64,000 nt of DNA from an uncultured Flavobacterium sp. (GTDB lineage: Bacteria > Bacteroidota > Bacteroidia > Flavobacteriales > Flavobacteriaceae): assembly GCA_963513545.1 (NCBI GenBank), contig CAUPQW010000001.1:298194-362193 (forward strand), in the 5' to 3' direction. Below the pieces are notes generated by a model that was not told where the DNA came from, ran no database searches, and saw only the letters and a program-made list of their open reading frames with translations. Below, piece after piece: positions 46,795 to 64,000 of the stretch. Position 1 is the first letter of the stretch, and each line of letters opens with the position of its first letter. The position numbers and the translations under genes are program-made.

Positions 46795-46933
46795 AATATT
46801 CTTTTAAAGTAGATGAAACAATTATTTCAATTATTAAATTTACTAACTTTTGCTCTCGTTCCTGCTCAATCATTTCAAAAGTTTCAAAAATTATTTGATC
46901 TACTTCTAATAATTTCTCATTTTCATTTTCCAT
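46778..46933 (-). CDS. 51-aa acidic protein, translationally overlapping the recombinase start (not in the ORF track)
   Basis: Hand translation: MENENEKLLEVDQIIFETFEMIEQEREQKLVNLIIEIIVSSTLKEYYEKGN*. Preceded by AAAGGAGGTGTGTG-ATG. Overlaps the recombinase ATG by 17 nt. Confidence 0.45.
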   Translation of the reverse strand: MENENEKLLEVDQIIFETFEMIEQEREQKLVNLIIEIIVSSTLKEYYEKGN

Positions 46934-46955
46934 CACACACCTCCTTTAATTACTT

Positions 46956-46993
46956 TTAATTAGAAAAGCCCGTAAGCGGGCTTTTCTAATTAA
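46956..46993. terminator. perfect 17-bp-stem hairpin between the wHTH gene and the recombinase module
   Basis: Arms ttaattagaaaagcccg and cgggcttttctaattaa with loop taag. No clear U-run, so terminator function is uncertain. Confidence 0.45.
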
Positions 46994-47016
46994 ATTAAAA
47001 TTCATTCAATTACTAC

Positions 47017-47301
47017 TCATATGGGAAAATAAATCGTACTTCTCTGGTTTCTGTTACGTTTTGGTAGATAACTTATGTAACCATACTCGTTTAGTTCACG
47101 CATGCATTTATGGTATGTTACAGGTCCCGTTATTTTGGCTAACTTCATGATTTCATATCTATAGACCTCAATAGGATTGATAAAACCTTTCTCCGTCCTA
47201 AATTGAAGCAATGCAGCATATATACCAATGTGAGTAATGCTGATACGGTAATCTTTCTCTATTGCTTTAAAGAAATCAGATAAAGGTTGTAGTGTTTTCA
47301 T
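47017..47301 (-). CDS. small winged-helix DNA-binding protein of the mobile element
   Basis: 94 aa. ISITHIGIYAALLQF...EIMKLAKITGPVTYHKCMRELNEYGYISY resembles the wHTH proteins common on Bacteroidota mobile elements (assignment by pattern only). Confidence 0.55.
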   Translation of the reverse strand: MKTLQPLSDFFKAIEKDYRISITHIGIYAALLQFRTEKGFINPIEVYRYEIMKLAKITGPVTYHKCMRELNEYGYISYLPKRNRNQRSTIYFPI

Positions 47302-47468
47302 ATTTCCGTTTCTCAGCTTATACGCATGCCATTCAGTTTCGAATGATTAACCTGATGGCTCTCGTTCGTTTTTTGTATTTGTTTTACAGTTTCCATTGTT
47401 TTATTACCCAATGCCGTTGATAGCGTAATTTTTCTGGAATGCTCATCATAAATGTTTACCGATTTAAA

Positions 47469-48365
47469 CTAAGGATTTGCTTCAATATAAAACCGGTGTT
47501 CATTTCCATTCTTAATCAAGGTTACGGGCAGCCGATTTCCTTGTTTTAAGTCATCCTTTAGTTTATCAGCTTCATTTTTATTTGATAATTCCTTTAAGGG
47601 AAGCTGTACTGCCTTTTCAAGATCATAACCGTATCCCGAATTAAATTCTTTGATACGATGATTTCCACTTGCGTCTTTGTCATTAAGATCTAACTGTATC
47701 CAGGATTTTTCTTTTTGAACTGCACGGCCCGCTAACAAATTATAAGCCTGTTTTGTGTCAAAAGAATTTCCTTCCTGTAATTTGAAATACTGGCTTCTAT
47801 TTTCATCCCGTTTTAGTTCATTTTGCAAAGTGGTTTTATAACCATCAAATTGATATTTTCCACTTTGGTCTTTAGAAAAAGATAACTCATGATCCAGTTT
47901 TTCCTTTTCGTTGATATAATAGGAAACCGGAATAGTAAACTGCTCGTGACCTAATTTGATCTGCTGTTCAATTTTATCTGATAAATCTCTAAAACCAATA
48001 CGCTGCAATTGTTCCTGCAGCGATTGGTTGTTTTTTTCTTCTTCTTTTACATCCTTGTGTACCGCAATTTGGTCTATGAGTGGCGCAACGAGAAGTTTCC
48101 GAACAAGACGAACTAATAAATTAGGATAAAGTTGCTTTAAAATCTTGTTCTTTTCCTGCTTGAGTATCTGCAATGCAAAACGTTCTTCCAAATTTTTTGT
48201 TTCCTTAAACTTTGTGCCAATACGCTCGTAATGATGCAGCTTTTCTTTAAGGAGTGATCTACTATTGGAAAGGCTGAAATTAAACAGCTTACTAAAGCGC
48301 TCTTCCCTGGAGTGCCACTGTTTTAATTCCATTTCTACTCTGTTAACGGGAAGCTGTTCGTTCAT
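47469..48365 (-). CDS. mobile-element protein with a C-terminal ~60-aa module shared with the upstream ORF (DUF3945-like?)
   Basis: C-terminal NSGYGYDLEKAVQLPLKELSNKNEADKLKDDLKQGNRLPVTLIKNGNEHRFYIEANP parallels HQNYGYDLEAALSKHPIKELETPKYKEDLMNSLKKGNLQSATFLKESNEIKQYIEASP in 48393-48818. Confidence 0.6.
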   Translation of the reverse strand: MNEQLPVNRVEMELKQWHSREERFSKLFNFSLSNSRSLLKEKLHHYERIGTKFKETKNLEERFALQILKQEKNKILKQLYPNLLVRLVRKLLVAPLIDQIAVHKDVKEEEKNNQSLQEQLQRIGFRDLSDKIEQQIKLGHEQFTIPVSYYINEKEKLDHELSFSKDQSGKYQFDGYKTTLQNELKRDENRSQYFKLQEGNSFDTKQAYNLLAGRAVQKEKSWIQLDLNDKDASGNHRIKEFNSGYGYDLEKAVQLPLKELSNKNEADKLKDDLKQGNRLPVTLIKNGNEHRFYIEANP

Positions 48366-48392
48366 AATTCAAATTTTAATTATTGTATTTTA

Positions 48393-48818
48393 CTACATGG
48401 AATTGGATTGGCTTTTCCTTTTTCTCTTAGCTTCCTTTGGCACTTCAGGTCCATCATCGTCGGCAGTTTGGTTTTGCTTTTTACTGCCTTGTTTCTCGGA
48501 AGTCTGCTGGGTTTCAGTTTGTTTTTCTTCTTGGCTTTTACGATTGTCAATTCGTTTCATATTATTATCATAGATATTAATTGTTTTGAATTGCGGGCTG
48601 GCTTCAATGTACTGCTTGATCTCATTGCTTTCTTTTAAGAAAGTAGCGCTCTGCAGATTTCCCTTTTTCAAAGAATTCATCAAGTCTTCTTTGTATTTTG
48701 GGGTTTCCAGTTCCTTAATCGGATGTTTGGACAATGCTGCTTCTAAATCATAGCCGTAATTCTGGTGGTAATGGTTTAGTTTAAAATTTCCATTAGTTTC
48801 GGATTGTTTGAAGTCCAT
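48393..48818 (-). CDS. mobile-element protein carrying the same ~60-aa module, with a Lys/Glu/Gln-rich tail
   Basis: See the paralogous module above. The start abuts the truncated coupling-protein gene. Confidence 0.55.
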   Translation of the reverse strand: MDFKQSETNGNFKLNHYHQNYGYDLEAALSKHPIKELETPKYKEDLMNSLKKGNLQSATFLKESNEIKQYIEASPQFKTINIYDNNMKRIDNRKSQEEKQTETQQTSEKQGSKKQNQTADDDGPEVPKEAKRKRKSQSNSM

Positions 48819-49691
48819 TTGAACCCCGCCTACCTAAATAACGTAATGGACCAATTGGAGGGGCAGATTGCTTCTGCAAAAATTGCCATGGCAAGGCTTT
48901 CCTCACCACAATTGTATTATGTTTTGTCCGGCAGCGATTTCACATTGGACATCAATAATCCGGACGATCCTAAGATCGTATGTATGGGTAATAATCCGCA
49001 GAAAATCCAGATTTATGGAGCTGTATTGTCACTTTACGTAAACCGATTGGTAAAGCAGGTAAACCAAAAAAACAAACAGAAAAGCAGTTTGATATTCGAT
49101 GAATTTCCAACTATTTATCTTAACAATATGGACAGTCTAATTGCAACTGCAAGAAGTAATAAAGTGGCAACCTGTTTGGGTATTCAGGATTTTAGCCAGC
49201 TCCGTAAAGACTATGGACGAGAACAGGCGGATGTTATTATGAATATTGTTGGGAACATTGTCAGCGGGCAGGTTACTGGGGATACTGCCAAACAATTATC
49301 AGAGCGTTTTGGGAAAATTATGCAGGACAGGGAAAGCCTTTCGATTAATAGTGGGGATACGTCAATCAGCCGCTCCAAACAATTGGAATCAGCAGTACCG
49401 CCGTCCAAAATTTCCGGACTTAGTTCCGGTGAGTTTGTAGGTATGGTAGCCGATGATCCGGATTGTAAAATCGAACTCAAAACATTTCATTCTGAAATAA
49501 TTAATGACCATCAGGCGTTGAAAATCGAACAGGATAATTACGTCGATATTCCTGTCATTCGAAAAGTCGATAATGCGATGGTACAGCGAAATTATCTGCA
49601 GATAAAAAAGGATATCAAGGATATCATTTATGCTGAAAAGGAAAGACTGTTGAATGATATTGAATTGAGCCATCTGGTAATTAAGAAATGA
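48804..49691 (+). pseudogene. 5'-truncated type IV secretion coupling protein (Bacteroidota TraG/TraD-type T4CP), C-terminal ~295 aa only
   Basis: LIFDEFPTIYLNNMDSLIATARSNKVATCLGIQDFSQLRKDYGREQADVIMNIVGNIVSGQVTGDTAKQLSERFGK is the conserved C-terminal ATPase part. No Walker A or TM N-terminal half. The frame opens only at 48798 after a TAG, and the only available start is a TTG. Confidence 0.7.
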
Positions 49692-50689
49692 TAATAAATA
49701 AAAACTTAAACTTAGAAATAATGATACAGGAACAATTTATCGATATAATCCAATTAATAAAACAATCCAGATCAAAAGCTATTGCTGCTGTTAATACTGA
49801 AATGATTAATCTGTACTGGAATATAGGACAGTATATTCATAATCGTATAGAAACAGCAGAGTGGGGAAAATCAGTCGTAAAAGAACTGGCTGATTTTTTA
49901 CAGAAAAGCGAACCTGATTTAAAAGGATTTTCCGATAAAAATCTTTGGAGGATGAAGCAATTTTATGAATCATACAGAGGCTATCCAAAACTCTCAACAG
50001 TGTTGAGAGAAATTAGCTGGTCACATAATCTTGCTATTTTTTCAAGATGTAAAACGATACAAGAAAAAGAGTTTTATCTGAAGTTAGCAAAGCAAGAAAA
50101 CTATAGTTTTAGGGAATTGGATCGACAGATTTCTTCCAGTCTTTATGAAAGAACTATGTTAGGTAATGCAAAACTCTCAACAGTGTTGAGAGAAATTCAT
50201 CCGGAGGCTCTAAATGCCTTTAAAGACAGTTATATTTTTGATTTTTTAAACCTTGTAGAGCCACATAAGGAGGGAGATCTACAGAAAGGACTGATAAAAC
50301 AAATGAAAAATTTTATCTTGGAATTGGGTAAAGATTTTTTATTTGTAGAAGAAGAATATAAAATTCAGGTCGGTAATAGTGATTTTTTTATTGACTTGTT
50401 ATTCTATCATAGGGGATTACAATGCCTTGTAATATTTGAGTTAAAATCTGATAAATTTAAACCTGAGCATTTAGGACAACTTAATTTTTATCTGGAAGCA
50501 CTTGATCGTGATGTAAAAAAAGAAAACGAAAATTCAAGTATTGGTATTTTATTATGCAAAGACCAAGACCACGCAGTGGTAGAATATGCTTTAAGCAGAA
50601 GTCTTTCTCCAACCATGGTTGCAGAATATAAGGTTCAACTTCCGGACAAACAATTGCTAATGCAAAAAATGCAAGAATTATTAAAATAA
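49688..50689 (+). CDS. DUF1016/YhcG-like PD-(D/E)xK nuclease family protein
   Basis: The N-terminal helical part (INLYWNIGQYIHNRI, FSDKNLWRMKQFYESY) and the C-terminal core (FIDLLFYHRGLQCLVIFELKSDKFKPEHLGQLNFY) fit the YhcG pattern. The ATG overlaps the upstream stop (ATGA). Confidence 0.7.
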   Translation: MIINKNLNLEIMIQEQFIDIIQLIKQSRSKAIAAVNTEMINLYWNIGQYIHNRIETAEWGKSVVKELADFLQKSEPDLKGFSDKNLWRMKQFYESYRGYPKLSTVLREISWSHNLAIFSRCKTIQEKEFYLKLAKQENYSFRELDRQISSSLYERTMLGNAKLSTVLREIHPEALNAFKDSYIFDFLNLVEPHKEGDLQKGLIKQMKNFILELGKDFLFVEEEYKIQVGNSDFFIDLLFYHRGLQCLVIFELKSDKFKPEHLGQLNFYLEALDRDVKKENENSSIGILLCKDQDHAVVEYALSRSLSPTMVAEYKVQLPDKQLLMQKMQELLK

Positions 50690-50938
50690 AAGTTATGATG
50701 ACTAAAGTAACTAAAAAAAACTCAATTAGATATTTCTATTTCTTCTAGATTGATATCTGCTAAAGGAATTTATTGAGTTGTGATTAAAAAAAGGCTTATA
50801 ATATTATAAATATGGCTCATTTGTAACTAATCATATTTTTTTGACATTATTTAAGTACTTTACATTGTAATTAACCAATAAATTGGAGTAGGCAATAAAA
50901 AAGATAAAACCTTATTTGATTTTAAACAAAATAAATTG

Positions 50939-51379
50939 ATGAATAATAATTTTAATACAATATTATCAACTTTAATGACTGAGTCAATTAATCTTTTAAA
51001 AAATAATTCATCGCAAAGAAGAAAGAGGATAAATAGATTAAGTGCATTAAAAGAGTCATATGTGAAATTTGATAAATTTGATAAATTTGAAACTGATTTC
51101 GAAAAGGATTTTATAGAAGTAGAATTAAAAGAAACCTGCTTCTTTATAATATCTGGAATAGAAACTAACTACACATCAATTCCCATGTATTTGGAATTAA
51201 AAAAGAAATTAGGTTTAAATTTCAGCTGGGTGCATATTAAAAGAGCACAACAACACTTTGACTTGAAAGGTGATATAATTAAAATCAATTTAAATAAGTT
51301 TGAAAAACATTATAGTAACTTCACTTTAATTTCCTTTCCTATTATTTTGTTGATGCAATCATTTAATGTGCCTATTTAA
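50939..51379 (+). CDS. hypothetical protein in a very AT-rich segment
   Basis: ORF only (146 aa from the ATG). The C-terminus becomes hydrophobic just before the stop. Confidence 0.4.
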   Translation: MNNNFNTILSTLMTESINLLKNNSSQRRKRINRLSALKESYVKFDKFDKFETDFEKDFIEVELKETCFFIISGIETNYTSIPMYLELKKKLGLNFSWVHIKRAQQHFDLKGDIIKINLNKFEKHYSNFTLISFPIILLMQSFNVPI

Positions 51380-51583
51380 ATCAAAAATATAAATTAAATG
51401 GAATTTTAGATTATATAATAGTAGTATCCACTTTGATTATACCTTTAATGTTAGCCTATTTGTTTGTAGCTAGTGCTGATTCTATTTTAACAGCTAGAAA
51501 AATAGAAAAAAGATTACAATTTGTAGACTTAAATGGAGAATAAATAATAAGTTGATATTAGACATCTAATTTGAAACTTCTTA

Positions 51584-51626
51584 TTAGTAATTGCTTAAAA
51601 TTAAATAATTTTTAAGCAATTACTAA
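51584..51626. promoter_or_regulatory. perfect 17-bp inverted repeat upstream of the toxin operon
   Basis: Arms ttagtaattgcttaaaa and ttttaagcaattactaa with a 9-nt spacer, about 145 bp upstream of the -7 box. Operator or terminator role unknown. Confidence 0.35.
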
Positions 51627-51771
51627 AAAAGGAGGTAGTTAATTTCTTTTTTAGAATTTTAATTTTCTTATAATGAAAAATATATTTTTCATTCAGGATA
51701 ATACTTTATTAATCGTAAGATTTTTATTTGTCATTAAATAAATATTTGCTTGTCAGTTAATTATAAAATAC

Positions 51772-51779
51772 TATTTTTG
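51772..51779 (+). promoter_or_regulatory. -7 promoter box for the Fn3 / SprB-repeat / toxin operon
   Basis: TATTTTTG (TAnnTTTG) lies 33 nt upstream of the ATG at 51812. Confidence 0.4.
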
Positions 51780-51811
51780 CGTTTTTTTAACATGGAAATA
51801 ATTACATATTA

Positions 51812-53878
51812 ATGTCAAAAAGCAAGCTTCTTTTTTTGTTCTTATTATTTATATCACTATCATATTCTCAGGCTAAACGTGCTACTGTCATGGTCAATGC
51901 CAGAGCTCAAAAAGATAAAATTTTGATTCGTTGGGCTGTTAATTCCCCTGCTGAATGGCAAAAAGCGAATAAAAAAGGATTTATACTTACCAGAACCACA
52001 GTATTACGAGATGGTAATGTTTTACCAAAACCTGAAAAAATTCTTCTTACTCCAAAAGCATTAGTAGCGGAACCTTTGAACGCCTGGCTTGATCTGGTAC
52101 AAAAAGATAATAATGCAGCTATTATAGCACAATCTATTTATGGAGAAAGTTTTGAGGTAACTTCTGCAAAAGAAGGAGATTTGTCAAAAATAGTAAATAT
52201 GGCAGATGAACTGAATCAGCGATATACATTTGCTTTGTATGCAGCCGATATGAGTTTTACCGGTGCGGTAAAAGCGGGCTGGGGATTTGTAGATACCAAT
52301 GTAAAGAAAAATGAAGTCTATGCTTATCAGGTAAGTGTTTTTGAAAGCCCAAAAGTTAAGGAATCATCTTACATGATAGGCTTAAAAGATTATAGTGCAC
52401 TTCCGGCTCCAACTGATTTTATTGCAGTTCCCGACGACAAAAAAGTATTACTTTCCTGGGATTACGAAACCTTTAAAAGAATTTATACCTCTTATATGGT
52501 CGAAAAATCTTCTGATGGAATCAATTTTAATCCCATAGCAACTACGCCTTTAGTAAACTTGAATGATAAAGACGAACATCCGTCAAAAACAATGTATTAT
52601 ATTGATACCCTTAGTGTAAACGATAAGATCTATCAATATCGATTATACGGTATAACTTCATTTGGAGAAAAAGGAGAAGTAACAAAACCAATTACTGCAA
52701 AAGGAGTAGCTGCTATAGTTACAGCGGCAAGGCTTGTAGATTATAATATCATTAATTCAAACGAAGTTAATCTTGAATGGGAATATCCTGTAGCCTCTGA
52801 AGGTTTCATACAAGGGTATGAAATTAATTTAGCGGATAACGATAAAGGTCCCTATAAAATTGTTTCTAAAATTATTCCACCATCCGAGAGAAAACTCAAT
52901 TATAAAGAAAATTTGTACCCCTCTAATTATTTTACAATATCTGTTGTAGGTAAAAATAATCAACGATTAACATCACAAAGTATGTTAGTCCAGCCTGTAG
53001 ATTCTATACCACCTGCAAAACCAATGGGGATCGAAGGAGTAATTGATAGCCTTGGGGTAGTTCGATTAAAATGGAAACCTAATCAGGAAAAAGATTTGCG
53101 AGGATACCGAATTTTAAAAGCCAATAACCCTGATGAAGAGTTTGTTGATATTTATCATCAATCTTATGTTGGTAATGACTATAAAGACAGTGTAAGTCTG
53201 AAGATGACAAACAGTAAGGTATATTATAGAATTGCTGCCGAAGATATGCGTTTTAATATTTCTGACCCATCTGATGTTTTGGTTTTGGATAAACCGGATA
53301 AAATCCCACCAGCAGCACCTATTTTTAAAGACTACGATAATAAAGACGGCAAAGTACATTTAAAATGGATACGAAGTTATAGTGAAGATGTAGTAGGATA
53401 TAGCCTAAGAAGGAGAGAAAAAGGACAAGAAAAGTGGCTGGAAATTAAGCAAATAAATGATACTATCCAGGAATTTACAGATGATAGGGTAGAGAACAAG
53501 AAAACATATCAGTATGCTATTTTGGCAAAGGATAAAAGTAATCTTTGGTCATCGTTAGATCATTCTATCATAACAGTACAGGTTTTAGATTTTACACCAG
53601 TTAAAATAATTACATTTTTACAAGGTGTACCAGACAGGGAAAACAAAAAAATAATCCTGACGTGGAGCTATGCTAAAAACAAAGGCAAAATTACAGGTTT
53701 GAGTATTTATAAAAATATTAAAGGAACGCCACCAACATTGTGGAGAGAATTAAATGGTGATGTTTTTACTTTAGAAGACAAGAATTTAAAGATAAATATG
53801 GAATACGAGTATCACTTGATTCCTGATCTGGAGAATAGCAGCCCTGCAAAAGAAGAAGTTTTAACCGTTGTTTATTAA
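51812..53878 (+). CDS. secreted multi-Fn3-like repeat protein (first gene of the toxin operon)
   Basis: Signal peptide MSKSKLLFLFLLFISLSYSQA. About 6 Fn3-like modules of ~95 aa (KILIRWAV..., KVLLSWDY...YQYRLYGITSFGEKG, VNLEWEYP..., VVRLKWKP...YYRIAAED, KVHLKWIR...YQYAILAKD, KIILTWSY...). No T9SS tail recognised. Confidence 0.8.
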   Translation: MSKSKLLFLFLLFISLSYSQAKRATVMVNARAQKDKILIRWAVNSPAEWQKANKKGFILTRTTVLRDGNVLPKPEKILLTPKALVAEPLNAWLDLVQKDNNAAIIAQSIYGESFEVTSAKEGDLSKIVNMADELNQRYTFALYAADMSFTGAVKAGWGFVDTNVKKNEVYAYQVSVFESPKVKESSYMIGLKDYSALPAPTDFIAVPDDKKVLLSWDYETFKRIYTSYMVEKSSDGINFNPIATTPLVNLNDKDEHPSKTMYYIDTLSVNDKIYQYRLYGITSFGEKGEVTKPITAKGVAAIVTAARLVDYNIINSNEVNLEWEYPVASEGFIQGYEINLADNDKGPYKIVSKIIPPSERKLNYKENLYPSNYFTISVVGKNNQRLTSQSMLVQPVDSIPPAKPMGIEGVIDSLGVVRLKWKPNQEKDLRGYRILKANNPDEEFVDIYHQSYVGNDYKDSVSLKMTNSKVYYRIAAEDMRFNISDPSDVLVLDKPDKIPPAAPIFKDYDNKDGKVHLKWIRSYSEDVVGYSLRRREKGQEKWLEIKQINDTIQEFTDDRVENKKTYQYAILAKDKSNLWSSLDHSIITVQVLDFTPVKIITFLQGVPDRENKKIILTWSYAKNKGKITGLSIYKNIKGTPPTLWRELNGDVFTLEDKNLKINMEYEYHLIPDLENSSPAKEEVLTVVY

Positions 53879-53882
53879 GCTT

Positions 53883-56800
53883 ATGAAGAAAATTTACGTA
53901 TTGATAATTTTATTGGTTTCAGGCTTTTGTTTTAGTCAGGGTGTTGGTGTATATGATGTTAGTTTTAATATAACAGGTATTGATGTAAAAGTAAATATAT
54001 CAGGAAATTGTGGCAGTCGTTTACAATCGTGGCTAATTTTTAGTAATGCTGCTGATCAGTCTTTTTTTTATCAACCAGTTGGTGACGGACAAAATCTTCC
54101 CAGAAATTGGACTGCTACTTTTCCCAGCTCCAATAAACTTACCAAGATTAAATATTATTCTGAGGGAAGGGAATATCATGGAGGGTTGAATTCTGGTTGT
54201 AAAAACGATCACAATAGTACGGAGTCTCAGAATGTTTCATACGGAATTACAGAATATTATATTGGGAATTATTTTACCAGACTTTATAACTTAAGTGCAA
54301 CACTTAAGATCCTTCCTAAACTTCATATAGAAATACCTGCCAATAACATTTTACCAACAACTGACAAGGTTACAATAAAATCCGATACAGGATTTTTGAG
54401 TTCTGAATACAATTGGCAATATTCATTTAATCCTCTTGACTCATCAAGTTGGGTAAGTCTTCCACAATTTAATACGGCAAATATATCGGTAAACGCCTTA
54501 GATGTCTTACCAGTATTGGATGAAACAAGTCATGGGAAAATTGTTTATTTTAGACAAATAGCCTATAATGGGGCTGCGGTTTCAAATCCGGTTCCTTACA
54601 GTATACGTTTATCTGCACCAAAAGTTGCTTCAGCAGTACCTGTTCAGCCAAGTTGTAGTGATACTAATGATGGATTTATAAAACTTGTGTTTGACCGGAC
54701 TTTATATCCCGGCGAACAGTTAAATTATACTTTACTGGACCTTACTACAAATACTCCTACTGATTATAATGGCACATTGTCTATTGCAGCAGATAAATCT
54801 TTTGTCATTTCGGGTTTAAGAAAAGGCAATTATATGCTGCAGCTAATTGGCTTTAAAAATGGATTAAGTACGGCTACTGATGCAGATCGATATGATTTGA
54901 AGTCATTTACAATAGCATCTCCTCCTGTATTGGATTTTACGCTAAACAGCACTGATGTACAATGTTACGGATCTCAGGACGGTACCATAACGATTACTCC
55001 AACCGGAGGAACCCGGACTGTATTAGACAATGATTATTATTCATTAGATAATGGATTGAACTGGGTTGCTTTTCCTAATAATACACCACATACTATTACC
55101 GGTTTGGAACTTGGTACATACAAAGTGAAATTAAAAGATATGAATGGCTGTATTGCTAGAATTCAAACATCAGTAAATGGAGAGATTCAGCTTGGTGATG
55201 ATAAAGTACTGGAAAAAACGATTTCACAACCCGCATCACCATTAACACTCAATTACACATTCAAAAAAGATCCCACCTTTTACGGAGCAGCTAACGGAAA
55301 ATTAACAGCCTCGATAACTGGTGGAACAATCAATGATGATAAATCGTATGAGTACGAATGGAAAAATAGTAATGGTATAGCTTTACTGGCAACAGCACAG
55401 TATAATGCTGCTGATAAAACGTATAATATTACCTTAGATAATGTTCCTGAAGGAGAATACAAACTGACAGTCAAAGATAAAAATTACAGTAATGCTAGTA
55501 ATAAAACAGCTTGTTCGATTATAGAATCATCACAAATATTAACCCAGCCTGATCAAATTATTATTGCTTTAGCAGAAACACAGCCTATTTCCTGTAATAC
55601 TGGAAATTTAGAATCAGATGTAAATAAATTCTCAGACGGAATTTTAAAAGCGACAGTAAGTGGTGGCGTTAAATTTACAGGATCAGCAAATAATGGTTTG
55701 CCTTATAAATTTATCTGGTCAAAATACAATACTGCAACAAATTTATGGGAAGAGTTGACAGATTATAAAACAGATACTGCAGAGAATCTTTCAAAAGGAA
55801 ACTATTCGCTAAACATTACAGATGCGAACGGAATAGTACAAGGAACTTATAACACTACAGATCTAGTAACAGCAGTTCCAACAACAAAAGAAATCGCTGA
55901 ACCCACAAAATTGGAATTGTCATTTACCTCAGAAAATGTTTTCTGTCACCAGGGAAATAATGGTTGGGCTACTGCAACTGTCACCGGAGGAACAGGGGCT
56001 TATACATATACATGGTACAATACGGGTAACGGAACTATTGACCAAAACAAAATAACTCAGTTAACAGCAGGGGAATATTTTGTTGAGGTGACAGATGCAA
56101 AGGGCTGTTTTATAAAAGGTAGTATCAAAATTAGTGAGCCAACGGAAATGGTAAAAATTGACTACGAAGAAATTTTCACGCCTACCTTTTCAGGAGCCAC
56201 TAACGGAAGAATTATAGCCAGGATAACAGGAGGAACACCAAATGATGATCAATCCTATAATTACGAATGGAAAAATGGAGCAGGAGTATTACAAACGACA
56301 ACAGCTGAAATAAAAGACGGCATTTATACCATTACGCTAAATGGTGTTCCTGCCGATGATTATTTTTTAACCATAAAAGACAAGAATTATAACGAAGCAA
56401 TAAATCAAATTATTAATTGTTCGGTCTTAGAGTCAAAAGTGACATTGAATCAGCCTGATCCTTTAAAAGTTGTTTTTGAAATCGTCCGTACTATTTCTTG
56501 TAATACAAGTAACGAGTTCGGAAATGATACAGATACAACACCAAATGACGGTCAGCGTGATGAATCGCAAGATGGTATTTTAACCGCTCATGTTTCAGGA
56601 GGAACTCCGCTGGCATCCTCTGTAAATAATGGATTACCGTATTATTTTTATTGGAAAAAGCAACAGACAGATGGCTCCTGGACCAGCTTACCTGACATTA
56701 CGGGAGAAACAGCTTCGGATCTTTCTCATGGGAATTATGCCTTAAATGTAAAAGACAGAAACGGAATCATGTTAGGAACTTACATCAATAACCAGCTTAC

Positions 56801-58973
56801 ACAAGAAATTGACGCAACCCAATTGATGCAGGAACCTCCCAAATTATCCGTAACCATTACCCATGGCGATGTGTTTTGTAATGATGGAAATGATGGTTGG
56901 GCTACAGCAAATGTTGTGGGCGGAACCCCTCCGTATGATTATAAATGGTCGAATGAAGTAGAAATTGATACAAACACTGTTTTAAAAGCGGGTGAATATT
57001 GGGTATTTATTACAGATGCCAAAGGATGTACTACGCAAGAAAGTATTACGATTTCAGAACCTGCAGCACCGCTTGCTATTAAATATATCGAAGTTCTTAA
57101 TCCAAGTTTTTACAAAGCGACCAATGGAAAAATAGTGGTAGAAGTTACCGGTGGTACTATTTTCTCAGACAACTCCTATTGGTTTGAATGGAAAAATAGT
57201 AAAGGAATTGTACAAACGACAACCACAACGAATTTCAGTAACGGAGTTTATACCATTTCCTTAAACGGGCTTCCGGAGGAAATGTATAGCTTAACAGTTC
57301 GTGATGCCAATTATAATCCTGCAACAAATAAAACAAGTTGCACCGTGGCAAATTCTTTAACAGCTTTAGACGACCCGGATCCGCTTGAAGTTACTTTTGA
57401 GGTAGTTCGTACTATTTCCTGTAATGTGAGTAATGAATTTGGAAATGAGACCGATGCTGATCCGATGGACAATCAAAGAGATGAATCGCAGGATGGTCTT
57501 TTGACAGCCCATGTTAAGGGAGGGATTCAGTTGCAGGCGGATAAAAATAACGGATTGCCTTATTTTTATACATGGAAAAAACAACAAAAAGATGGTTCGT
57601 GGACAATCTGGAATGATCAGGATGAAACCGCAGAAAATTTGTCTGACGGAACCTATGCTTTGAATATTGAAGATGCCAACGGAATAAAACTCGGAACGTA
57701 TCTCAATAATATTTTGGTTCAGGCAAAAGATGTTGCCCAATATATGCCGGAGCCTGAAAAATTAAAACTCACTTTTACTAAGTTAGATGTAGGCTGTACA
57801 ACAGGAAATGACGGTTGGGCAGAAGCGCATGTTTCCGGGGGCACTCCACCTTATATGTATGAGTGGACAAATGGAGAAACAACCCCAAGAATAGAAAACA
57901 TTACCACAAACAATTACTTTGTAATCGCAACCGATGCAAAAGGTTGTATTGTTCAGGGAAGCATTTTTGTTGGTGATCCAAAAGGAATATTTACGACTGA
58001 AATCATCAAAAATACTACTTGTTATCAAGGGAATGATGCTTCGATAGAATTAAATGTTACAGGTGGAAATTTACCTTACAGCTATTTATGGAACACTGGT
58101 GCTACGACCAAAGACCTAAATAATCTTACAGCAGGAAATTATGAAGTTGCTATTACCTGTCCTGATTGCTGTACATATAAAAAGAAATTTGTTTTAAAAG
58201 ATCCGCAACCTGTTATTGTAAATATTGGTCCTGACAGAACCTTATGCAACGATCAGAATCTGGATTTAGAGGCGAAAATTGCAGATCCGAAAGCACAATA
58301 CAGCTGGACCTCTACAAATGGATTTACCTCGAATGAAGCAAAAGTAAATGTATCAAAAGCCGGAACCTATCACGTAAAAGTAACTTCAGGTTTAGGATGT
58401 GTTAGCGAAGATGAAATTGTAATAAAAACAAGTCAGGCAGTAATTAATTCCGAATTTTTATTGAGCTCTCAGGCTTATTTGGATGAAGAAGTAATATTGA
58501 TTAATACAAGCAGCCCTATTGGCGAAGATACAGAATGGGTGATACCTCAAGGGGTGAATAGTATAGAGCAAAACGAAAAATACGCAACACTCAAATTTAG
58601 TGCGATTGGTACTTATACCATTGGTCTGAAGCAAACACAAGGGGAGTGTTATGCTACATTTAATAAAAATATTACGGTAGAGCAACGAAGTACATTACCT
58701 AATACAGGCACAACATCGCAATTCATTGTAGATTTTATCGTAACTCCAAATCCGAGTAATGGTAATTTTAAAGCACTTGTGACTTTAGAAAACAATAGTG
58801 ACATAAACCTAAGACTATTCTCAACAACAGGACAAAATACTATGATTCAGAAAAAAGAATCCGGAAAGAAAAAGTATGAAATAGATTTTGAGACCACATT
58901 AGAATCCGGAATGTATGTTTTAGTATTAGAAACAGGGCAACAAACATTGGTTAAAAAAATTATCATCAATTAA
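53883..58973 (+). CDS. giant SprB-repeat cell-surface protein with T9SS type-A C-terminal sorting domain
   Basis: ATG at 53883 (MKKIYVLIILLVSGFCFSQG), 4 nt after the upstream stop. SprB-type repeats: CHQGNNGWATATVTGGTGAYTYTWYN, CNDGNDGWATANVVGGTPPYDYKWSN, CTTGNDGWAEAHVSGGTPPYMYEWTN, CYQGNDASIELNVTGGNLPYSYLWN. C-terminal TPNPSNGNFKALV...GMYVLVLETGQQTLVKKIIIN. Confidence 0.88.
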   Translation: MKKIYVLIILLVSGFCFSQGVGVYDVSFNITGIDVKVNISGNCGSRLQSWLIFSNAADQSFFYQPVGDGQNLPRNWTATFPSSNKLTKIKYYSEGREYHGGLNSGCKNDHNSTESQNVSYGITEYYIGNYFTRLYNLSATLKILPKLHIEIPANNILPTTDKVTIKSDTGFLSSEYNWQYSFNPLDSSSWVSLPQFNTANISVNALDVLPVLDETSHGKIVYFRQIAYNGAAVSNPVPYSIRLSAPKVASAVPVQPSCSDTNDGFIKLVFDRTLYPGEQLNYTLLDLTTNTPTDYNGTLSIAADKSFVISGLRKGNYMLQLIGFKNGLSTATDADRYDLKSFTIASPPVLDFTLNSTDVQCYGSQDGTITITPTGGTRTVLDNDYYSLDNGLNWVAFPNNTPHTITGLELGTYKVKLKDMNGCIARIQTSVNGEIQLGDDKVLEKTISQPASPLTLNYTFKKDPTFYGAANGKLTASITGGTINDDKSYEYEWKNSNGIALLATAQYNAADKTYNITLDNVPEGEYKLTVKDKNYSNASNKTACSIIESSQILTQPDQIIIALAETQPISCNTGNLESDVNKFSDGILKATVSGGVKFTGSANNGLPYKFIWSKYNTATNLWEELTDYKTDTAENLSKGNYSLNITDANGIVQGTYNTTDLVTAVPTTKEIAEPTKLELSFTSENVFCHQGNNGWATATVTGGTGAYTYTWYNTGNGTIDQNKITQLTAGEYFVEVTDAKGCFIKGSIKISEPTEMVKIDYEEIFTPTFSGATNGRIIARITGGTPNDDQSYNYEWKNGAGVLQTTTAEIKDGIYTITLNGVPADDYFLTIKDKNYNEAINQIINCSVLESKVTLNQPDPLKVVFEIVRTISCNTSNEFGNDTDTTPNDGQRDESQDGILTAHVSGGTPLASSVNNGLPYYFYWKKQQTDGSWTSLPDITGETASDLSHGNYALNVKDRNGIMLGTYINNQLTQEIDATQLMQEPPKLSVTITHGDVFCNDGNDGWATANVVGGTPPYDYKWSNEVEIDTNTVLKAGEYWVFITDAKGCTTQESITISEPAAPLAIKYIEVLNPSFYKATNGKIVVEVTGGTIFSDNSYWFEWKNSKGIVQTTTTTNFSNGVYTISLNGLPEEMYSLTVRDANYNPATNKTSCTVANSLTALDDPDPLEVTFEVVRTISCNVSNEFGNETDADPMDNQRDESQDGLLTAHVKGGIQLQADKNNGLPYFYTWKKQQKDGSWTIWNDQDETAENLSDGTYALNIEDANGIKLGTYLNNILVQAKDVAQYMPEPEKLKLTFTKLDVGCTTGNDGWAEAHVSGGTPPYMYEWTNGETTPRIENITTNNYFVIATDAKGCIVQGSIFVGDPKGIFTTEIIKNTTCYQGNDASIELNVTGGNLPYSYLWNTGATTKDLNNLTAGNYEVAITCPDCCTYKKKFVLKDPQPVIVNIGPDRTLCNDQNLDLEAKIADPKAQYSWTSTNGFTSNEAKVNVSKAGTYHVKVTSGLGCVSEDEIVIKTSQAVINSEFLLSSQAYLDEEVILINTSSPIGEDTEWVIPQGVNSIEQNEKYATLKFSAIGTYTIGLKQTQGECYATFNKNITVEQRSTLPNTGTTSQFIVDFIVTPNPSNGNFKALVTLENNSDINLRLFSTTGQNTMIQKKESGKKKYEIDFETTLESGMYVLVLETGQQTLVKKIIIN

Positions 58974-58975
58974 AA

Positions 58976-61900
58976 ATGAAGAACTTTTTCAAAAATATAA
59001 TTTTATTCATATTGTTCCCCCTTTGGGGGCTAGGGGGATTTGGCTCAGGGGCTTACGCTCAGCTTTATCCGGTTCAGTTAACACCTGTTTTCAATAGTCC
59101 GTATAGTGTCAAAATGTCGGATTATACCAACAGCATGGATATTAAAATGCAATTGCTGATCAATCCTACAGATATCTCTATATCGCAAAGACAGGTACGT
59201 CTAAAATTTTACATACAAGGTAACGGACTCAACATACAAAGCAGTGATTATATACAGGGGCAGCGCCCAATTTTTATAAATGGTGGAGAATTGCAAACGC
59301 TTACCAATACTGATATTGCGGCACTATTTAGGTTAGAAAATCTGCAGGGAATTTCTCCTGCACAATATGCCAATGGATTACCTGAAGGGATGTATAGCTT
59401 TTGCTTTGAAATGTATGATTTTGTGACCAACCAGAAGATCTCACAAAAAAGCTGTTCCAGTTTATACCTGATCTTAAATGATCCACCAATATTAAATACG
59501 CCACAAAAAAACGAACAAATTGCTTCAACAGAATTTCCGAATATTTTATTTACCTGGACACCGCGCCAGATCAATGCAACCAATGTATCGTATAAGTTTG
59601 AGTTAAAACAGCTTATTGATCCTGCATTAGACCCACAATTCGGGTTTCAAATGTCTCCCATTTTATATGAGGAAACACTTTTTGGGACTGCTTTGCTGTA
59701 TAATTTAAGCATGCCAATTCTTACCCCTGGATTGCGTTATGCATGGCGGGTAAAAGCGATTTCGACCACAGGACTTTCAGAGAATGCCATATTTAAGAAT
59801 GATGGATACAGCGAGATCTATTCGTTTAAATATACATCGTCCTGTACTGCCCCAACTTTTTTATTAAGCGAATCCCAGAGTTCTAAAAGTGTCAAAATCA
59901 CTTGGCAAGGAACGCCGGAACATACACGCTATCAGGTACAATACAAAAAACAAGGTGTTCGTAATGCACAATGGTTTTCGATCAATAGTTTAAACACACA
60001 AAGCTTAATCACCAATTTAGAGCCCGGTGTTACGTATCAGTTTAGAGTAGGTTCAAGCTGTGATCCCGTAACCGAAGGCGTTCAGTCGTTTACCTATTCC
60101 GGCATCAGCACCTTTACAACACCTACAGAGACAAGTGGCGTTGCTGCTTATAACTGTGGTATTATTCCTCAAATTAATATTCAGAACCAAAAACCGCTTA
60201 CGAATTTAATACAAGGCGAAACGTTTAAGGCGGGCGATTTTCCGGTCACAATTTCTGAACTTAAAGGCGAGAACAGTCCTTATTCAGGACGCGGTTATAT
60301 AATGGTTCCTTATTTAAATCAAATTAAAATAGCTGTTCAGTTTAGTAATATCACGATCAATACCGATTATCAATTGATTAGCGGTGTTGTGGAAACGGCT
60401 TATGATGCGAAGTGGAGTGATGTTGTTAATGGAAAAGAAATAATTGATGATGTAAAAAGTTTACTGGAAGGAATTGCGGATCTCTTTAATAGAGCCGATG
60501 AATTAGAAAAGCAAAAAGCGGCGGGTACAACTAGTGAAGAAGATTATAATAAGAATTGGAAAGAAATTTATGCTGGTCTGGAAAAAGCTAAGGAACAATA
60601 TAAAACATTAGTAAATGCTCCTGATATTCCTGAGGACTTAAAGAAAAAAGTTGCTGATTTAGATCCGGTTTTTGTTGAGTTGGCTTCTAATAATTATACA
60701 ACGTCAGGCAATCAAAACCAGGAGAATTTAGCAAAAACAAACGCAGTTTTTGATGAAGTAAATAAGTTTTTTAGTGAAAAATGTGATGTTGCACTTAAAA
60801 GTGTTGTAGCCTTTTTAGCGACAGAAAAAGTAACTTATTTAAAATTAGTAGCCAGTGAAGTGTCAAAAACTACAGCATCAGTTTCAGGAAGCAAGACATA
60901 TATGACCTCTATTTATGAGGAAGGAAAAGGCACTTTAAAAATAATACATTATAAAGGATGGAGTATTAGTAACCCTGTCCAGAACTTATTTTTGATTGAG
61001 ACCAATGATGCAGAATTAAATAAATTAAAAATAACAAAATTTTGGTTGAGCTATGTCCCCAATAGTGTAGATGGATATGCAGCGGGAGTTGATGTAACAA
61101 TTTATTTTAAAGATCCGGTACCAAATCCTGATGAACCTTTTTGTACACAAAAAACCACTATTGTCAAAGGTGTTTCTGCGCAAGCACAATTTTCAGATGC
61201 AATGGGACAAATGGTTTTTTATGGAGCTTTAGGTTTAGGTTCAGTAGAGGCATTAGCAAGCGTAAAAGCAACCGAATGTATTACAGGATTTGCCCTTGAT
61301 ACAGGCTTTCAAATGGGGATAAATGCTATTGTAAAACGATATTTGAATGAGAGTTTTACGACGAAACAATTAATGAAAGAAGTTTCCCTGCCAAGTGCAG
61401 CGACAAGCTGTGCAACAGCGGCTCTAGTAAATAAATGCGGTACGGGATGTGCAGGTGTTAGTGGTTTTGTAGTAGGTTTTGGTGATGATATTTTAAACCA
61501 GCTAAAAAGCGGAAAAAGCTTATCTGAGGTAGAAATTAGCCAAAGTACTTTAAACGGTATAAAGCAAGCAATTTTAACTATCGTACTTCAAAAAGTAATT
61601 ACTTTTGGTATAGGTAAATTTTCTGCATGGAAGGGTAAATATACACCAAAACAGGTTGAAGATGCTTTAGAAGATTTGCAGGCTAACCCTGAGAAGTATG
61701 GAGTTGAAGGAGCTTTAGTAGCAAAGAATGTTGAGGATGTGATTTCAAAAAAGGTTTTAAAAACGATCACGAAATACGATAGAAAGTTAGGAAAAACGGT
61801 TGAATATCCAATGTATAATAATTTAGCTTTAGGAAAAGATTTAAATGGTACCCTTAAAAAATTTGGTGATGAAGTTGGCGCTAATGTTTGGACTGCTGAA

Positions 61901-62221
61901 ACTGATAATGTTTTTACTTCAATGTATGATCTTATGGATAGTAGAAGTTTCGAGAGAAACATTTCTGATGTATTTACTCAAACGATCAAAAATGAAGGAA
62001 AAATACTTTTTGATATAACTAGTGTAAATATTCAAAAAGCAATTGATGGAGGTTTAACACATAATACTAAATTGGTACTTGATGATAAACTAGTTACAGA
62101 ATTAGAATTACAATTAATTCTAAGAAATCAATCTTGGTTTGAAAATGTTATATTCCATAATCAAGGGAAGATATTATCTAATCAAGAGCTTACAAATGCA
62201 GGTATTAAATTAATTAATTAG
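58976..62221 (+). CDS. polymorphic toxin: signal peptide, conserved N-terminal domain, Fn3, coiled coil, Gly/Cys-rich pre-toxin region, conserved handle, ~170-aa variable C-terminal tip
   Basis: ATG 2 nt after the upstream stop. Signal MKNFFKNIILFILFPLWGLGGFGSGAYAQ. Fn3: VKITWQGTPEHTRYQVQYKK...YQFRVGSSC. The handle GFGDDILNQLKSGKSLSEVEISQSTLNGIK...GIGKFSAWKGKYTPKQVEDALEDL..PEKYG is duplicated at 62660-62895 in front of a different tip. Confidence 0.8.
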   Translation: MKNFFKNIILFILFPLWGLGGFGSGAYAQLYPVQLTPVFNSPYSVKMSDYTNSMDIKMQLLINPTDISISQRQVRLKFYIQGNGLNIQSSDYIQGQRPIFINGGELQTLTNTDIAALFRLENLQGISPAQYANGLPEGMYSFCFEMYDFVTNQKISQKSCSSLYLILNDPPILNTPQKNEQIASTEFPNILFTWTPRQINATNVSYKFELKQLIDPALDPQFGFQMSPILYEETLFGTALLYNLSMPILTPGLRYAWRVKAISTTGLSENAIFKNDGYSEIYSFKYTSSCTAPTFLLSESQSSKSVKITWQGTPEHTRYQVQYKKQGVRNAQWFSINSLNTQSLITNLEPGVTYQFRVGSSCDPVTEGVQSFTYSGISTFTTPTETSGVAAYNCGIIPQINIQNQKPLTNLIQGETFKAGDFPVTISELKGENSPYSGRGYIMVPYLNQIKIAVQFSNITINTDYQLISGVVETAYDAKWSDVVNGKEIIDDVKSLLEGIADLFNRADELEKQKAAGTTSEEDYNKNWKEIYAGLEKAKEQYKTLVNAPDIPEDLKKKVADLDPVFVELASNNYTTSGNQNQENLAKTNAVFDEVNKFFSEKCDVALKSVVAFLATEKVTYLKLVASEVSKTTASVSGSKTYMTSIYEEGKGTLKIIHYKGWSISNPVQNLFLIETNDAELNKLKITKFWLSYVPNSVDGYAAGVDVTIYFKDPVPNPDEPFCTQKTTIVKGVSAQAQFSDAMGQMVFYGALGLGSVEALASVKATECITGFALDTGFQMGINAIVKRYLNESFTTKQLMKEVSLPSAATSCATAALVNKCGTGCAGVSGFVVGFGDDILNQLKSGKSLSEVEISQSTLNGIKQAILTIVLQKVITFGIGKFSAWKGKYTPKQVEDALEDLQANPEKYGVEGALVAKNVEDVISKKVLKTITKYDRKLGKTVEYPMYNNLALGKDLNGTLKKFGDEVGANVWTAETDNVFTSMYDLMDSRSFERNISDVFTQTIKNEGKILFDITSVNIQKAIDGGLTHNTKLVLDDKLVTELELQLILRNQSWFENVIFHNQGKILSNQELTNAGIKLIN

Positions 62222-62225
62222 TTAT

Positions 62226-62552
62226 ATGGAAAAAATAACAGAAATTTTTGGATTACAAATACACGCAATAATTCATTATTATAATGAAAAAAAAATATCA
62301 ATAAGTTTTGATAATACTAATATAAGAATAGAATTTTATAATTGTCCCCTGGTTTTCGACTCAGGTATTATAGGAAAAAAAGTGCTAGTAGCCGAAAGGT
62401 ATAAAGGAGAGATGAGTTTTGTACTTGTTTTTAGAGAAATGAAATTGGATGTCGATGATTATAAATATTTTATAATTAAAGGGCAAGAAGGGTTAGAGCA
62501 TTATCAGAATCAAATAAGAATTGCGTATCAATCGATGGAGATAATTTTATAA
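62226..62552 (+). CDS. putative cognate immunity protein of the 1081-aa toxin
   Basis: 108-aa ORF starting 4 nt after the toxin stop. No signal peptide. No family recognised. Position-based call. Confidence 0.55.
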   Translation: MEKITEIFGLQIHAIIHYYNEKKISISFDNTNIRIEFYNCPLVFDSGIIGKKVLVAERYKGEMSFVLVFREMKLDVDDYKYFIIKGQEGLEHYQNQIRIAYQSMEIIL

Positions 62553-62674
62553 TAATTTATTGATTTTCCCTAATTCCGAACTACTAGGTTTTTTAGCGAT
62601 TTTAAAAACTTTCGGATGATAGTTGATATCAATCATTTTATAAAACCTTTACATAAACAGGTTTTGGTGATGAT

Positions 62675-63532
62675 GTGTTGAACCAGTTAAAAAGTGGAAA
62701 AAGCTTATCTGAGGTAGAAATTAGCCAAAGTACATTAAACGGTATTAAGCTAGGTATTTTAAATATTGTGGTCCAAAAAGCAATTACTTTTGGTATAGGT
62801 AAATTTTCTGCTTGGAAAGGTAAATACACTCCAAAACAGGTTGAAGAGGCATTGGAGGATTTAGAATTACATCCCGAGAAGTATGGATTGAAAGGTACTG
62901 AAATAGACGCGACTTTAAGTATAATGCTTAAAAATGCAGATTTTAAAAAGATTTATGAAAATTTGAGTAATGGTAATATTACGAGGGTTTATAGTAAAAT
63001 CTTTAGTATTGAAGAAGAAGCATTAATAAGATTTTATCAAGAAGGTTCATATTACAATTTCAATCAAGCATTAATTAACAAAACTGCTTCACAAGATATA
63101 TTAACTATTGAAAAGATGTTAAATAAGACTTTAGATAAAATTCCATCCAAAGCAGGTAATTATTTCAGAGGTGTAGGAAAAGAAGAAACCTTGAAATTAT
63201 TAGCAAAAAAAGAAGGTGGTGAAATTGGATATGATAATTTTCTATCTAGCTCAAGCGAAAAAGATGTAGCTTGGGGTTTTCTAAGAAAGGTTAATGAGAT
63301 GGATGAAAAAGCATTTATAACAGTAATATCTAAAAATGGCAAAAATCTTGAGAGTGGTAGAGATGTTATGAGAGGAGAGTTTGAAATGCTGCATAAAAGT
63401 AAAACAAAATTCGAAATAGAAAAGATTGAATTTATTGAGAAAGAAATTTTAAATATAGATGATGTAGCAATTGATGGTGCAACACCAGATGTAATCAAGA
63501 AATTTTATTTAATAACAATAAAAGAATTATGA
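62675..63532 (+). CDS. orphan toxin cassette: handle remnant plus ADP-ribosyltransferase-like tip (no ATG start)
   Basis: The frame opens right after a TAA (62654-62656), and homology to the main gene begins at 62660. Only GTG/TTG starts are available (62675/62678). ART signature: SYYNFNQALI, YFRG (Arg codon 63167-63169), FLSSSSE (63245-63256), GEFEML (E-x-E, 63377-63385). Confidence 0.7.
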   Translation: MLNQLKSGKSLSEVEISQSTLNGIKLGILNIVVQKAITFGIGKFSAWKGKYTPKQVEEALEDLELHPEKYGLKGTEIDATLSIMLKNADFKKIYENLSNGNITRVYSKIFSIEEEALIRFYQEGSYYNFNQALINKTASQDILTIEKMLNKTLDKIPSKAGNYFRGVGKEETLKLLAKKEGGEIGYDNFLSSSSEKDVAWGFLRKVNEMDEKAFITVISKNGKNLESGRDVMRGEFEMLHKSKTKFEIEKIEFIEKEILNIDDVAIDGATPDVIKKFYLITIKEL

Positions 63533-64000
63533 GATTAGAGGAGATAGAAAAAATAGAAGAGTTATATCTTTTAAAAAATTCTCACAGATATGAGATACAG
63601 CTTATAGAAGGTTTAAAAAAGGATTTGTATTGGGCATCGCTTTCAGATAAGGAAAAGCTTGAATTAAGAACAAAAGAATTGATGAAAAAATATGTTTTTA
63701 AAGAAATATATTCGGATTTAATGATTTCGTATGAAGAGTCTGTTATAGATTTGGTTAAACTCATAATGAAATTCTTAGATGAAATTAATTTAATTGTTTT
63801 TGATTTTCAAAATATGTCAGAAGATGAATTTATATTATTTCGCTTAAAAAATATGATGTGTGTAGAGTTATATGCTGTAAATAAAAGGGAAAAACTTCAA
63901 TATTCTGGGCATGTACTTTTTGAAGAAGTTGTACAGCCTATTTTTGTTGAGATAGAAAGGACTGAATTTTATATACAATACAGCTTAGAAGATCTAAGAG
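63529..64000 (+). CDS. putative immunity protein of the orphan ART tip, 3'-partial (absent from the ORF track)
   Basis: The ATG at 63529 overlaps the toxin stop (ATGA). Hand translation MRLEEIEKIEELYLLKNSHRYEIQLIEGLKKDLYWASLSDKEKLELRTKELMKKYVFKEIYSDLMISYEES... stays open for 157 codons to the window end. Confidence 0.6.
   Translation, partial: MRLEEIEKIEELYLLKNSHRYEIQLIEGLKKDLYWASLSDKEKLELRTKELMKKYVFKEIYSDLMISYEESVIDLVKLIMKFLDEINLIVFDFQNMSEDEFILFRLKNMMCVELYAVNKREKLQYSGHVLFEEVVQPIFVEIERTEFYIQYSLEDLR

Follow-up and report, generated by a model that had tools for sequence, protein, structure and literature searches.

The TANFOR-containing proteins were defined as a class of Bacteroidetes polymorphic toxins by Jana, Salomon & Bosis in 2020 (PMC7073777). 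[quoted passage not shown] A search of the literature for later studies of how TANFOR proteins are secreted returned only this paper and works citing it, none of which settles the export route. Here, we analysed a 64,000-nt stretch of contig CAUPQW010000001.1 from an uncultured Flavobacterium sp. (hereafter the window), focusing on an open reading frame (ORF) at 58976..62221 (+) that starts with ATG and encodes a protein of 1081 amino acids (aa). The exact protein was not found in the contig index. Comparison with related loci indicates that it very likely belongs to the TANFOR class, and the gene probably encodes a polymorphic toxin that this Flavobacterium uses against competing bacteria. 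The protein is an ordinary member of the class except for its tip and candidate immunity gene, which form an undescribed family.

Membership of the class is indicated by the N-terminal 485 aa and by the gene neighbourhood. We scanned one genome per species and obtained 80 loci in Flavobacteriaceae carrying this 485-aa module at 47-89% identity, distributed over Flavobacterium, Tenacibaculum, Aquimarina, Galbibacter, Gelidibacter, Spongiimicrobium, and Pseudofulvibacter. Among them, the toxin of F. hydatis DSM 2063 (L012) is 84% identical over aa 3-485, and the ORFs of that locus (688, 1754, 1841, and 358 aa) follow the same order as here and as for WP_081912444.1. Given this identity and the shared gene order, the locus is orthologous to the experimentally studied TANFOR-BaCT locus. 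A reading of the sequence made before any database search (the sequence-only reading) had raised TANFOR as a possible identity for the N-terminus, while leaving the trafficking domain unidentified; the latter has in fact had a name in the literature since 2020. The suggestion itself is supported by the orthologous locus and, with a score short of the curated cutoff (39.8 bits; cutoff 67), by TIGR02542, which aligns with the first domain, N1, over nearly the whole model (positions 12-142 of 145, E 3.8e-10) when N1 is searched in isolation. On the whole toxin, the same model aligns to aa 41-164 with 33.9 bits. Close homologs bear the name "TANFOR domain-containing protein" in other sources.

The constant module is preceded by a signal peptide and consists of four pieces, each conserved to much the same degree (47-53%) in other genera. 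The signal peptide, read by inspection, has a hydrophobic core at aa 8-20 and ends in AYA/Q, and the start of the mature toxin (AQLYPVQL/QLYPVQL) is kept across homologs, in agreement with the Sec signal (aa 1-29) read earlier. A Gln at position +1 is typical for signal peptidase I substrates of Bacteroidota. What had been taken for a single N-terminal domain of ~260 aa is actually two, N1 (aa 30-168) and N2 (aa 169-291). The AlphaFold2 model of N1 is an all-beta sandwich (pLDDT 94.7), and its best Foldseek matches in the PDB are generic Ig-like and E-set domains at TM 0.37-0.57, the top neighbours being 2r39 (a FixG-related protein, E 2.9e-4), GH2 Ig-like domains, RbmA, and HAP2 domain 3. N2 is probably Fn3-like, given a weak, suggestive hhalign match to the Fn3 block (probability 24%, E 8e-4) and a weak Tissue_fac match; it is 53% conserved in other genera. 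A relation of N1 to N2 or Fn3 as an internal repeat was rejected (hhalign probability ≤ 0.3%). The single Fn3 domain read earlier at aa ~292-385 was recovered as PF00041 at aa 292-358 (E 2.6e-8), the sole Fn3 that Pfam detects in the toxin, and this region matches Fn3 entries of the PDB by sequence. PDB sequence searches returned no solved structure related to N1, N2, or the body that follows the module. The fold suggests a protein-protein docking stalk and not an enzyme or a membrane domain.

Beyond the constant module, the protein is built of replaceable parts. A search of 5.8 billion proteins returned 460 homologs, nearly all from Flavobacterium, and the best 120 were re-aligned for breakpoints. 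Similarity stops at aa 478-493 in 86 of the 120 and between aa 494 and 700 in 20, and it persists to aa ~906 or further in 14. When 41 Flavobacterium loci are compared with the query, identity stands at 0.8-0.9 up to aa ~450, falls to 0.13-0.25 past aa 485, and is 0.04-0.09 in the tip. The breakpoints and the identity profile together indicate a constant part at aa 1-485, followed by a body (aa 486-911) and a tip (aa 912-1081) that can each be replaced, as nested modules. The sequence-only reading had placed a constant body up to the tip; conservation does drop after PEKYG as it proposed, but it also drops earlier, at aa ~485, and the body is itself swappable, being common to 14 of the 120 homologs only. 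The body has no match in Pfam, NCBIfam, or the PDB. Its Lys/Glu-rich stretch and Gly/Cys-rich segment are both present in the toxin sequence, and the latter directly precedes the recombination handle. The earlier likening of the Gly/Cys-rich stretch to pre-toxin regions did not hold at the profile level, as PT-TG (PF14449) gave no match at E ≤ 10 on aa 486-911.

The second junction lies at the handle GFGDD...PEKYG (aa 834-911). The handle DNA is repeated downstream, at 62659-62906 (248 nt, 83% identity), and the repeat begins sharply at GFGDD and stops at PEKYG, where the handle had been read to end. Additional downstream handle copies are found in three other loci (L001, L003, and L047). The closest homolog, from Flavobacterium sp. 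LM4 (L001), is 95% identical to aa 913 and then continues into a Toxin-deaminase domain, which upholds the earlier view of a secreted polymorphic toxin with a demarcated variable tip past PEKYG; indeed, all the segment boundaries drawn from the sequence match real features. Tips of other homologs comprise XOO_2897 deaminase, AHH, Endonuclease_NS_2, ADPrib_exo_Tox/ART, and DUF3289 domains, and the Pfam models found among homolog tips include PF14424, PF14440, PF14412, PF13930, PF03496, and PF01129. The tip is thus not as conserved as the body, and no end-to-end match to a characterised non-toxin family came out. Furthermore, a remnant of aa 425-485 lies downstream of the LM4 toxin (14919-15101), which indicates that the first junction also seeds orphans.

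The tip of ~170 aa was modelled by AlphaFold2 as an autonomous alpha/beta domain (pLDDT 92.6, pTM 0.87). No Pfam or NCBIfam family scored above threshold, and neither the tip nor its profile had a sequence match in the PDB. Foldseek likewise gave no match in the PDB (best E 0.28, TM ≤ 0.30) or BFVD (best E 0.30, TM ≤ 0.37), and given these E values we assigned no fold. A comparison with the new toxin domains of Nachmias et al., made as a motif search of one supplementary file and therefore a weak test, gave no match in that file. The tip has 26 close homologs, mostly short ORFs from Flavobacterium, Chryseobacterium, Fulvivirga, and Runella; some of them begin inside the PEKYG handle and are therefore regarded as orphan copies. 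A profile search of 1.84 billion representatives detected 50 proteins at E < 1e-3. The distant relatives match the C-terminal half of the tip and terminate proteins with Rhs-associated cores (8 of 33), PT-HINT domains, or PT-TG domains. Taken together, relatives of the tip end proteins of the Rhs, PT-HINT, and TANFOR kinds, and in 64 of 67 cases a domain hit stops no more than 8 aa from the protein C-terminus. By these searches, the distribution is as expected for a true polymorphic-toxin domain. Among polar residues, strong conservation is limited to T1041 (98%), E1042 (81%), and E1044 (97%). The tip could be an enzyme working in the target cytoplasm, with these three as candidate catalytic residues. 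An ART-like reading of E-x-E was rejected because the motif lies in a helix of the alpha/beta model and not in the ART beta-strand.

The tip is inherited along with a 108-aa candidate immunity protein, imm1, encoded directly 3'. This protein matches no Pfam or NCBIfam family above threshold and has no signal peptide, and is therefore predicted to be cytoplasmic. An imm1 homolog directly follows the tip or a tip remnant in each of the six other loci that were examined, which range from Flavobacterium to Fulvivirga: LM4 (99% identity), Chryseobacterium bernardetii (L082, 70%), a metagenome contig (L085, 72%), Fulvivirga (L084, 49%), and the loci L043 and L049. Of the window tip, LM4 retains only the C-terminal 41 aa, which lie downstream before an intact imm1 copy, and the DNA of the tip remnant/imm1 cassette is 97.4% identical between the window and LM4, compared with 88% for the body. 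The cassette has thus been displaced in LM4, and a recent transfer between lineages is probable. In the proposed scheme, imm1 would bind and neutralise the tip, protecting kin cells. As judged from the libraries searched, tip and imm1 make up an undescribed, putative toxin-immunity family that is absent from Pfam and NCBIfam.

Two side observations concern immunity genes elsewhere. The orphan array of C. bernardetii with this tip family (L082 3746-5933) also holds a CdiA_C-type tip and a SitI3 immunity gene, and from its contents it appears that TANFOR arrays share cassettes with the toxin repertoires of the type V and type VI secretion systems (T5SS and T6SS). After some stand-alone TANFOR toxins, there are tandem small, very hydrophobic proteins (MKIIKWL...LYWVGFAILYSYGAGG; L041 13589-14972, L054 13754-16601, and L073 13074-15580); they resemble membrane immunity proteins, which hints at membrane-targeting tips.

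Downstream of imm1, the second handle copy is fused to another tip. This orphan cassette is promoterless and lacks an N-terminal module, with a stop codon just 5' of the handle copy. Its 209-aa tip gave sub-threshold matches to PF03496 (E 0.011, 15.5 bits, cutoff 23.4) and PF01129 (E 0.12) and no match in a PDB sequence search; by inspection, the motifs YFRG, FLSSSS, and GEFEML follow the canonical R-S-E order of ARTs. The ATG of the next gene, the candidate immunity gene imm2, overlaps the orphan stop codon (ATGA). No Pfam or NCBIfam family matches imm2 above threshold, and its homologs occur in the toxin arrays L002, L010, and L011, the L010 copy standing directly after a remnant of this ART-like tip. 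Recombination between the two handle copies would delete the present tip together with imm1 and fuse the ART-like tip to the expressed gene. The locus shows tips being replaced and orphans stored at two nested junctions, which had not been described before for TANFOR toxins.

The toxin gene is the last of three closely packed genes on the same strand. The gene for a 688-aa Fn3 protein overlaps that for a SprB-like protein by 11 nt, and a gap of 3 nt separates the SprB-like stop codon from the toxin start. The 688-aa protein has a signal peptide ending in SYS/Q. The SprB-like protein carries PF13573 in seven stretches (E 2.5e-52) and Por_Secre_tail/TIGR04183 at aa 1625-1701 (E 6e-12), a C-terminal domain (CTD) for T9SS sorting. 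Of 81 related loci, 61 have a homolog of the 688-aa gene upstream of the toxin gene and on its strand (identity 74-95% within Flavobacterium, 40-45% for marine genera), and a SprB-like gene is present upstream in 63. The 688-aa protein is conserved uniformly along its length. Among close Flavobacterium species, identity of the SprB-like protein is 0.18 at aa 51-150 (hypervariable) and ~0.8 in the C-terminal half. According to these profiles, the conserved core of the operon consists of the SprB-like C-terminal half and the toxin N-terminal module, lying between two variable poles, namely the N-terminus of the SprB-like protein and the C-terminus of the toxin, and the pattern marks the two conserved parts as likely to interact. 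Hypervariability of the SprB-like N-terminal ~100-300 aa could reflect target recognition, phage pressure, or domain shuffling. A conserved SprB-like partner with a hypervariable N-terminus suggests T9SS-linked surface delivery. In Tenacibaculum and Aquimarina, a ~450-aa PKD-repeat lipoprotein lies between the SprB-like and toxin genes (L058 8067-9413; L075 8533-9894), and in L058 a 118-aa 23S-rRNA-IVP/bAvd-like protein (9459-9815) directly precedes the toxin gene.

Inspection by eye showed a perfect hairpin at 51581-51630 (TTAGTAATTGCTTAAAA...TTTTAAGCAATTACTAA), upstream of the operon. The motif TATTTTTG at 51768-51780, ~35 nt 5' of the first operon ATG, fits TAnnTTTG by eye, which is the -7 promoter consensus of Bacteroidota. 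Debris of mobile elements also occupies the stretch just upstream of the operon (45238-51750), including a serine recombinase (45238-46794, -), a truncated fragment of a TraG/coupling protein (48804-49691), and a YhcG PD-(D/E)xK nuclease (49688-50689), and G+C falls to 0.21-0.25 at 50500-51750. LM4 has an IS3-family transposase at the equivalent position.

We propose that, after Sec export of the toxin, the constant module would dock on the SprB-like T9SS cargo and/or the 688-aa Fn3 protein, and the CTD-less toxin would reach the cell surface along with these partners. There, the hypervariable distal end of the SprB-like protein may contact target cells, and the tip would enter the target cytoplasm; tips would be switched by recombination between handle copies. 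The hitchhiking of the toxin on the T9SS is a possible step that we rate somewhat short of probable. In its most complete form, the three-gene module would be a T9SS-run Bacteroidota counterpart of contact-dependent inhibition, in which a CTD-exported SprB-like filament picks the target with its distal N-terminus and binds the four-domain module of the toxin, the 688-aa protein acts as adaptor, and the tip is a new T-E-x-E enzyme fold found also in Rhs and PT-HINT toxins; taken as a whole, this scheme is doubtful.

Several points weigh against the proposed scheme. N1 scores under the NCBIfam curated cutoff for TANFOR, and as modelled it is a generic Ig-like beta-sandwich that tells nothing specific on trafficking. 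Neither the toxin nor the 688-aa protein has a CTD, since scans with the type A (TIGR04183/PF18962), B (TIGR04131), and C (NF033708) models gave none at E ≤ 0.1 in either protein, so a hidden CTD on them was rejected; and we know of no precedent for co-export of a CTD-less partner by the T9SS. The partner genes are not adjacent in 18-20 of the 81 loci. Finally, to call the tip an enzyme is a guess from a single conserved T-E-x-E motif, because no protein of known activity is related to it in structure or sequence.

The most serious alternative is that the same toxin leaves the cell independently of a T9SS partner, by vesicle packing or lysis after Sec export, the SprB-like gene being merely co-regulated or a fellow-traveller. 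Absence of a CTD from the toxin is in line with this, as is detection of a Tannerella forsythia TANFOR protein in a vesicle proteome (PMC10682907), and of the related toxin genes about one in four is solitary, in an unrelated context. These partner-less copies, however, sit in genomes that also hold the complete operon, the three-gene order is kept across the seven genera named above though the partners are just 40-45% identical, and the junctions are tight, so we consider this route rather unlikely. A toxin aimed at eukaryotes (protists, insects, or fish) instead of bacteria would agree with the VIP2-type ART tips noted by Jana et al. and with the ART-like orphan tip in the window, but it is very improbable because the small signal-less genes after both tips co-vary with the tips, which is the self-protection signature of an antibacterial toxin. 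Hardly any weight is left for a non-toxin, namely an Ig/Fn3 surface adhesin or structural protein whose C-terminus is a binding module under diversifying selection: the N-terminal half does consist of beta-sandwich domains typical of adhesins and the tip matches no known catalytic family, yet the same module carries deaminase, AHH, nuclease, and ART toxin domains in homologs, the tip of the F. hydatis ortholog was shown by experiment to be a DNase and has a cognate immunity protein, relatives of the tip end Rhs and PT-HINT proteins, and a small cytoplasmic partner gene always accompanies the tip. The reading of the gene as an antibacterial TANFOR toxin is thus retained, and the features of the locus are listed in Table 1.

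Table 1. Features of the toxin operon and of the downstream cassettes, in window coordinates.
Feature	Position	Strand	Basis or remark
688-aa Fn3-rich secreted protein, operon gene 1	51812..53878	+	Pfam fn3 E 9.9e-12
1701-aa SprB-repeat protein with type-A T9SS CTD, operon gene 2	53868..58973	+	PF13573, TIGR04183
Predicted TANFOR-class polymorphic toxin, 1081 aa, operon gene 3	58976..62221	+	
Sec signal peptide, aa 1-29, cleavage AYA/Q	58976..59062	+	by inspection
N1, putative TANFOR domain, aa 30-168	59063..59479	+	TIGR02542; AlphaFold2; Foldseek
N2, probably Fn3-like, aa 169-291	59480..59848	+	weak hhalign and weak Tissue_fac match
Fn3 domain, aa 292-385	59849..60130	+	PF00041
Post-Fn3 domain, aa 386-485, ends the constant module at the first junction	60131..60430	+	
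Variable body, aa 486-833: Lys/Glu-rich stretch, mixed region, Gly/Cys-rich hydrophobic segment	60431..61473	+	
Handle GFGDD...PEKYG, aa 834-911, repeat copy 1 and second junction	61474..61721	+	direct repeat
Predicted toxin tip, aa 912-1081, undescribed family, T1041-E1042-x-E1044 motif	61709..62218	+	
imm1, 108-aa candidate cognate immunity protein	62226..62552	+	downstream of tip
Orphan cassette: second handle copy (62659-62906) fused to ART-like tip	62659..63532	+	
imm2, candidate immunity gene of the orphan tip, runs off the window	63529..64000	+	ATGA overlap

Other systems were seen in the window as well. A second, unrelated polymorphic toxin is encoded at 39-6107 (+); its 2022 aa comprise FG-GAP and RHS repeats as well as a tip matching Ntox23 (E 1.3e-36), and a 169-aa ORF at 6101-6610 (+) that overlaps its gene and matches no family is likely the immunity gene. 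Two tandem paralogs at 11372-13222 (-) and 13355-15208 (-) each combine Endonuclease_1, Fn3, Lamin-tail, and a T9SS CTD; they are predicted secreted nucleases that, in contrast to the TANFOR toxin, carry a canonical T9SS signal.

The toxin class is already known, and the gene leaves the overall picture unchanged. The locus bears on how TANFOR toxins leave the cell and on whether the T9SS serves interbacterial killing. Given a family missing from Pfam and NCBIfam, a confident model without a structural neighbour, and occurrence in Rhs and PT-HINT toxins, the tip is a candidate for a new toxic activity.

Compared with TANFOR-BaCT WP_081912444.1, the toxin shares the 485-aa N-terminal module (84%) and the same operon of 688-aa Fn3 protein, SprB-repeat CTD protein, toxin, and immunity gene, and in both toxins a Sec signal is present and a CTD absent. 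They differ in everything past aa ~485: the body is shorter here (1081 versus 1841 aa in total), and the tip is not BaCT and stands in no domain library. The handle-delimited orphan cassette is a further difference, as orphan cassettes and two-tier breakpoints do not appear in PMC7073777.

The arrangement also recalls CdiA-CT/CdiI of the T5SS, where a conserved delivery part is followed by a variable C-terminal toxin past a short motif (VENN in CdiA, PEKYG in this toxin), the cognate immunity gene (a candidate here) lies directly 3', and 5'-truncated orphan toxin/immunity pairs carry the junction sequence. Pfam detected no TPS domain or FHA repeats in the window toxin, VENN does not occur in its sequence, and there is no CdiB partner; the delivery part consists instead of Ig/Fn3 sandwiches, and the host is a Bacteroidota with a T9SS. 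Rhs/YD-repeat toxins are alike in their modular tip and immunity cassettes and in that displaced tips collect downstream, and Rhs proteins carry distant relatives of this very tip, whereas the window toxin has neither YD repeats nor an Rhs core. With the SprB/RemA-type gliding adhesins of Flavobacterium johnsoniae, the upstream partner shares SprB repeats and a T9SS sorting domain, but its CTD is of type A where that of SprB is of type B, and its gene is fixed in a toxin operon.

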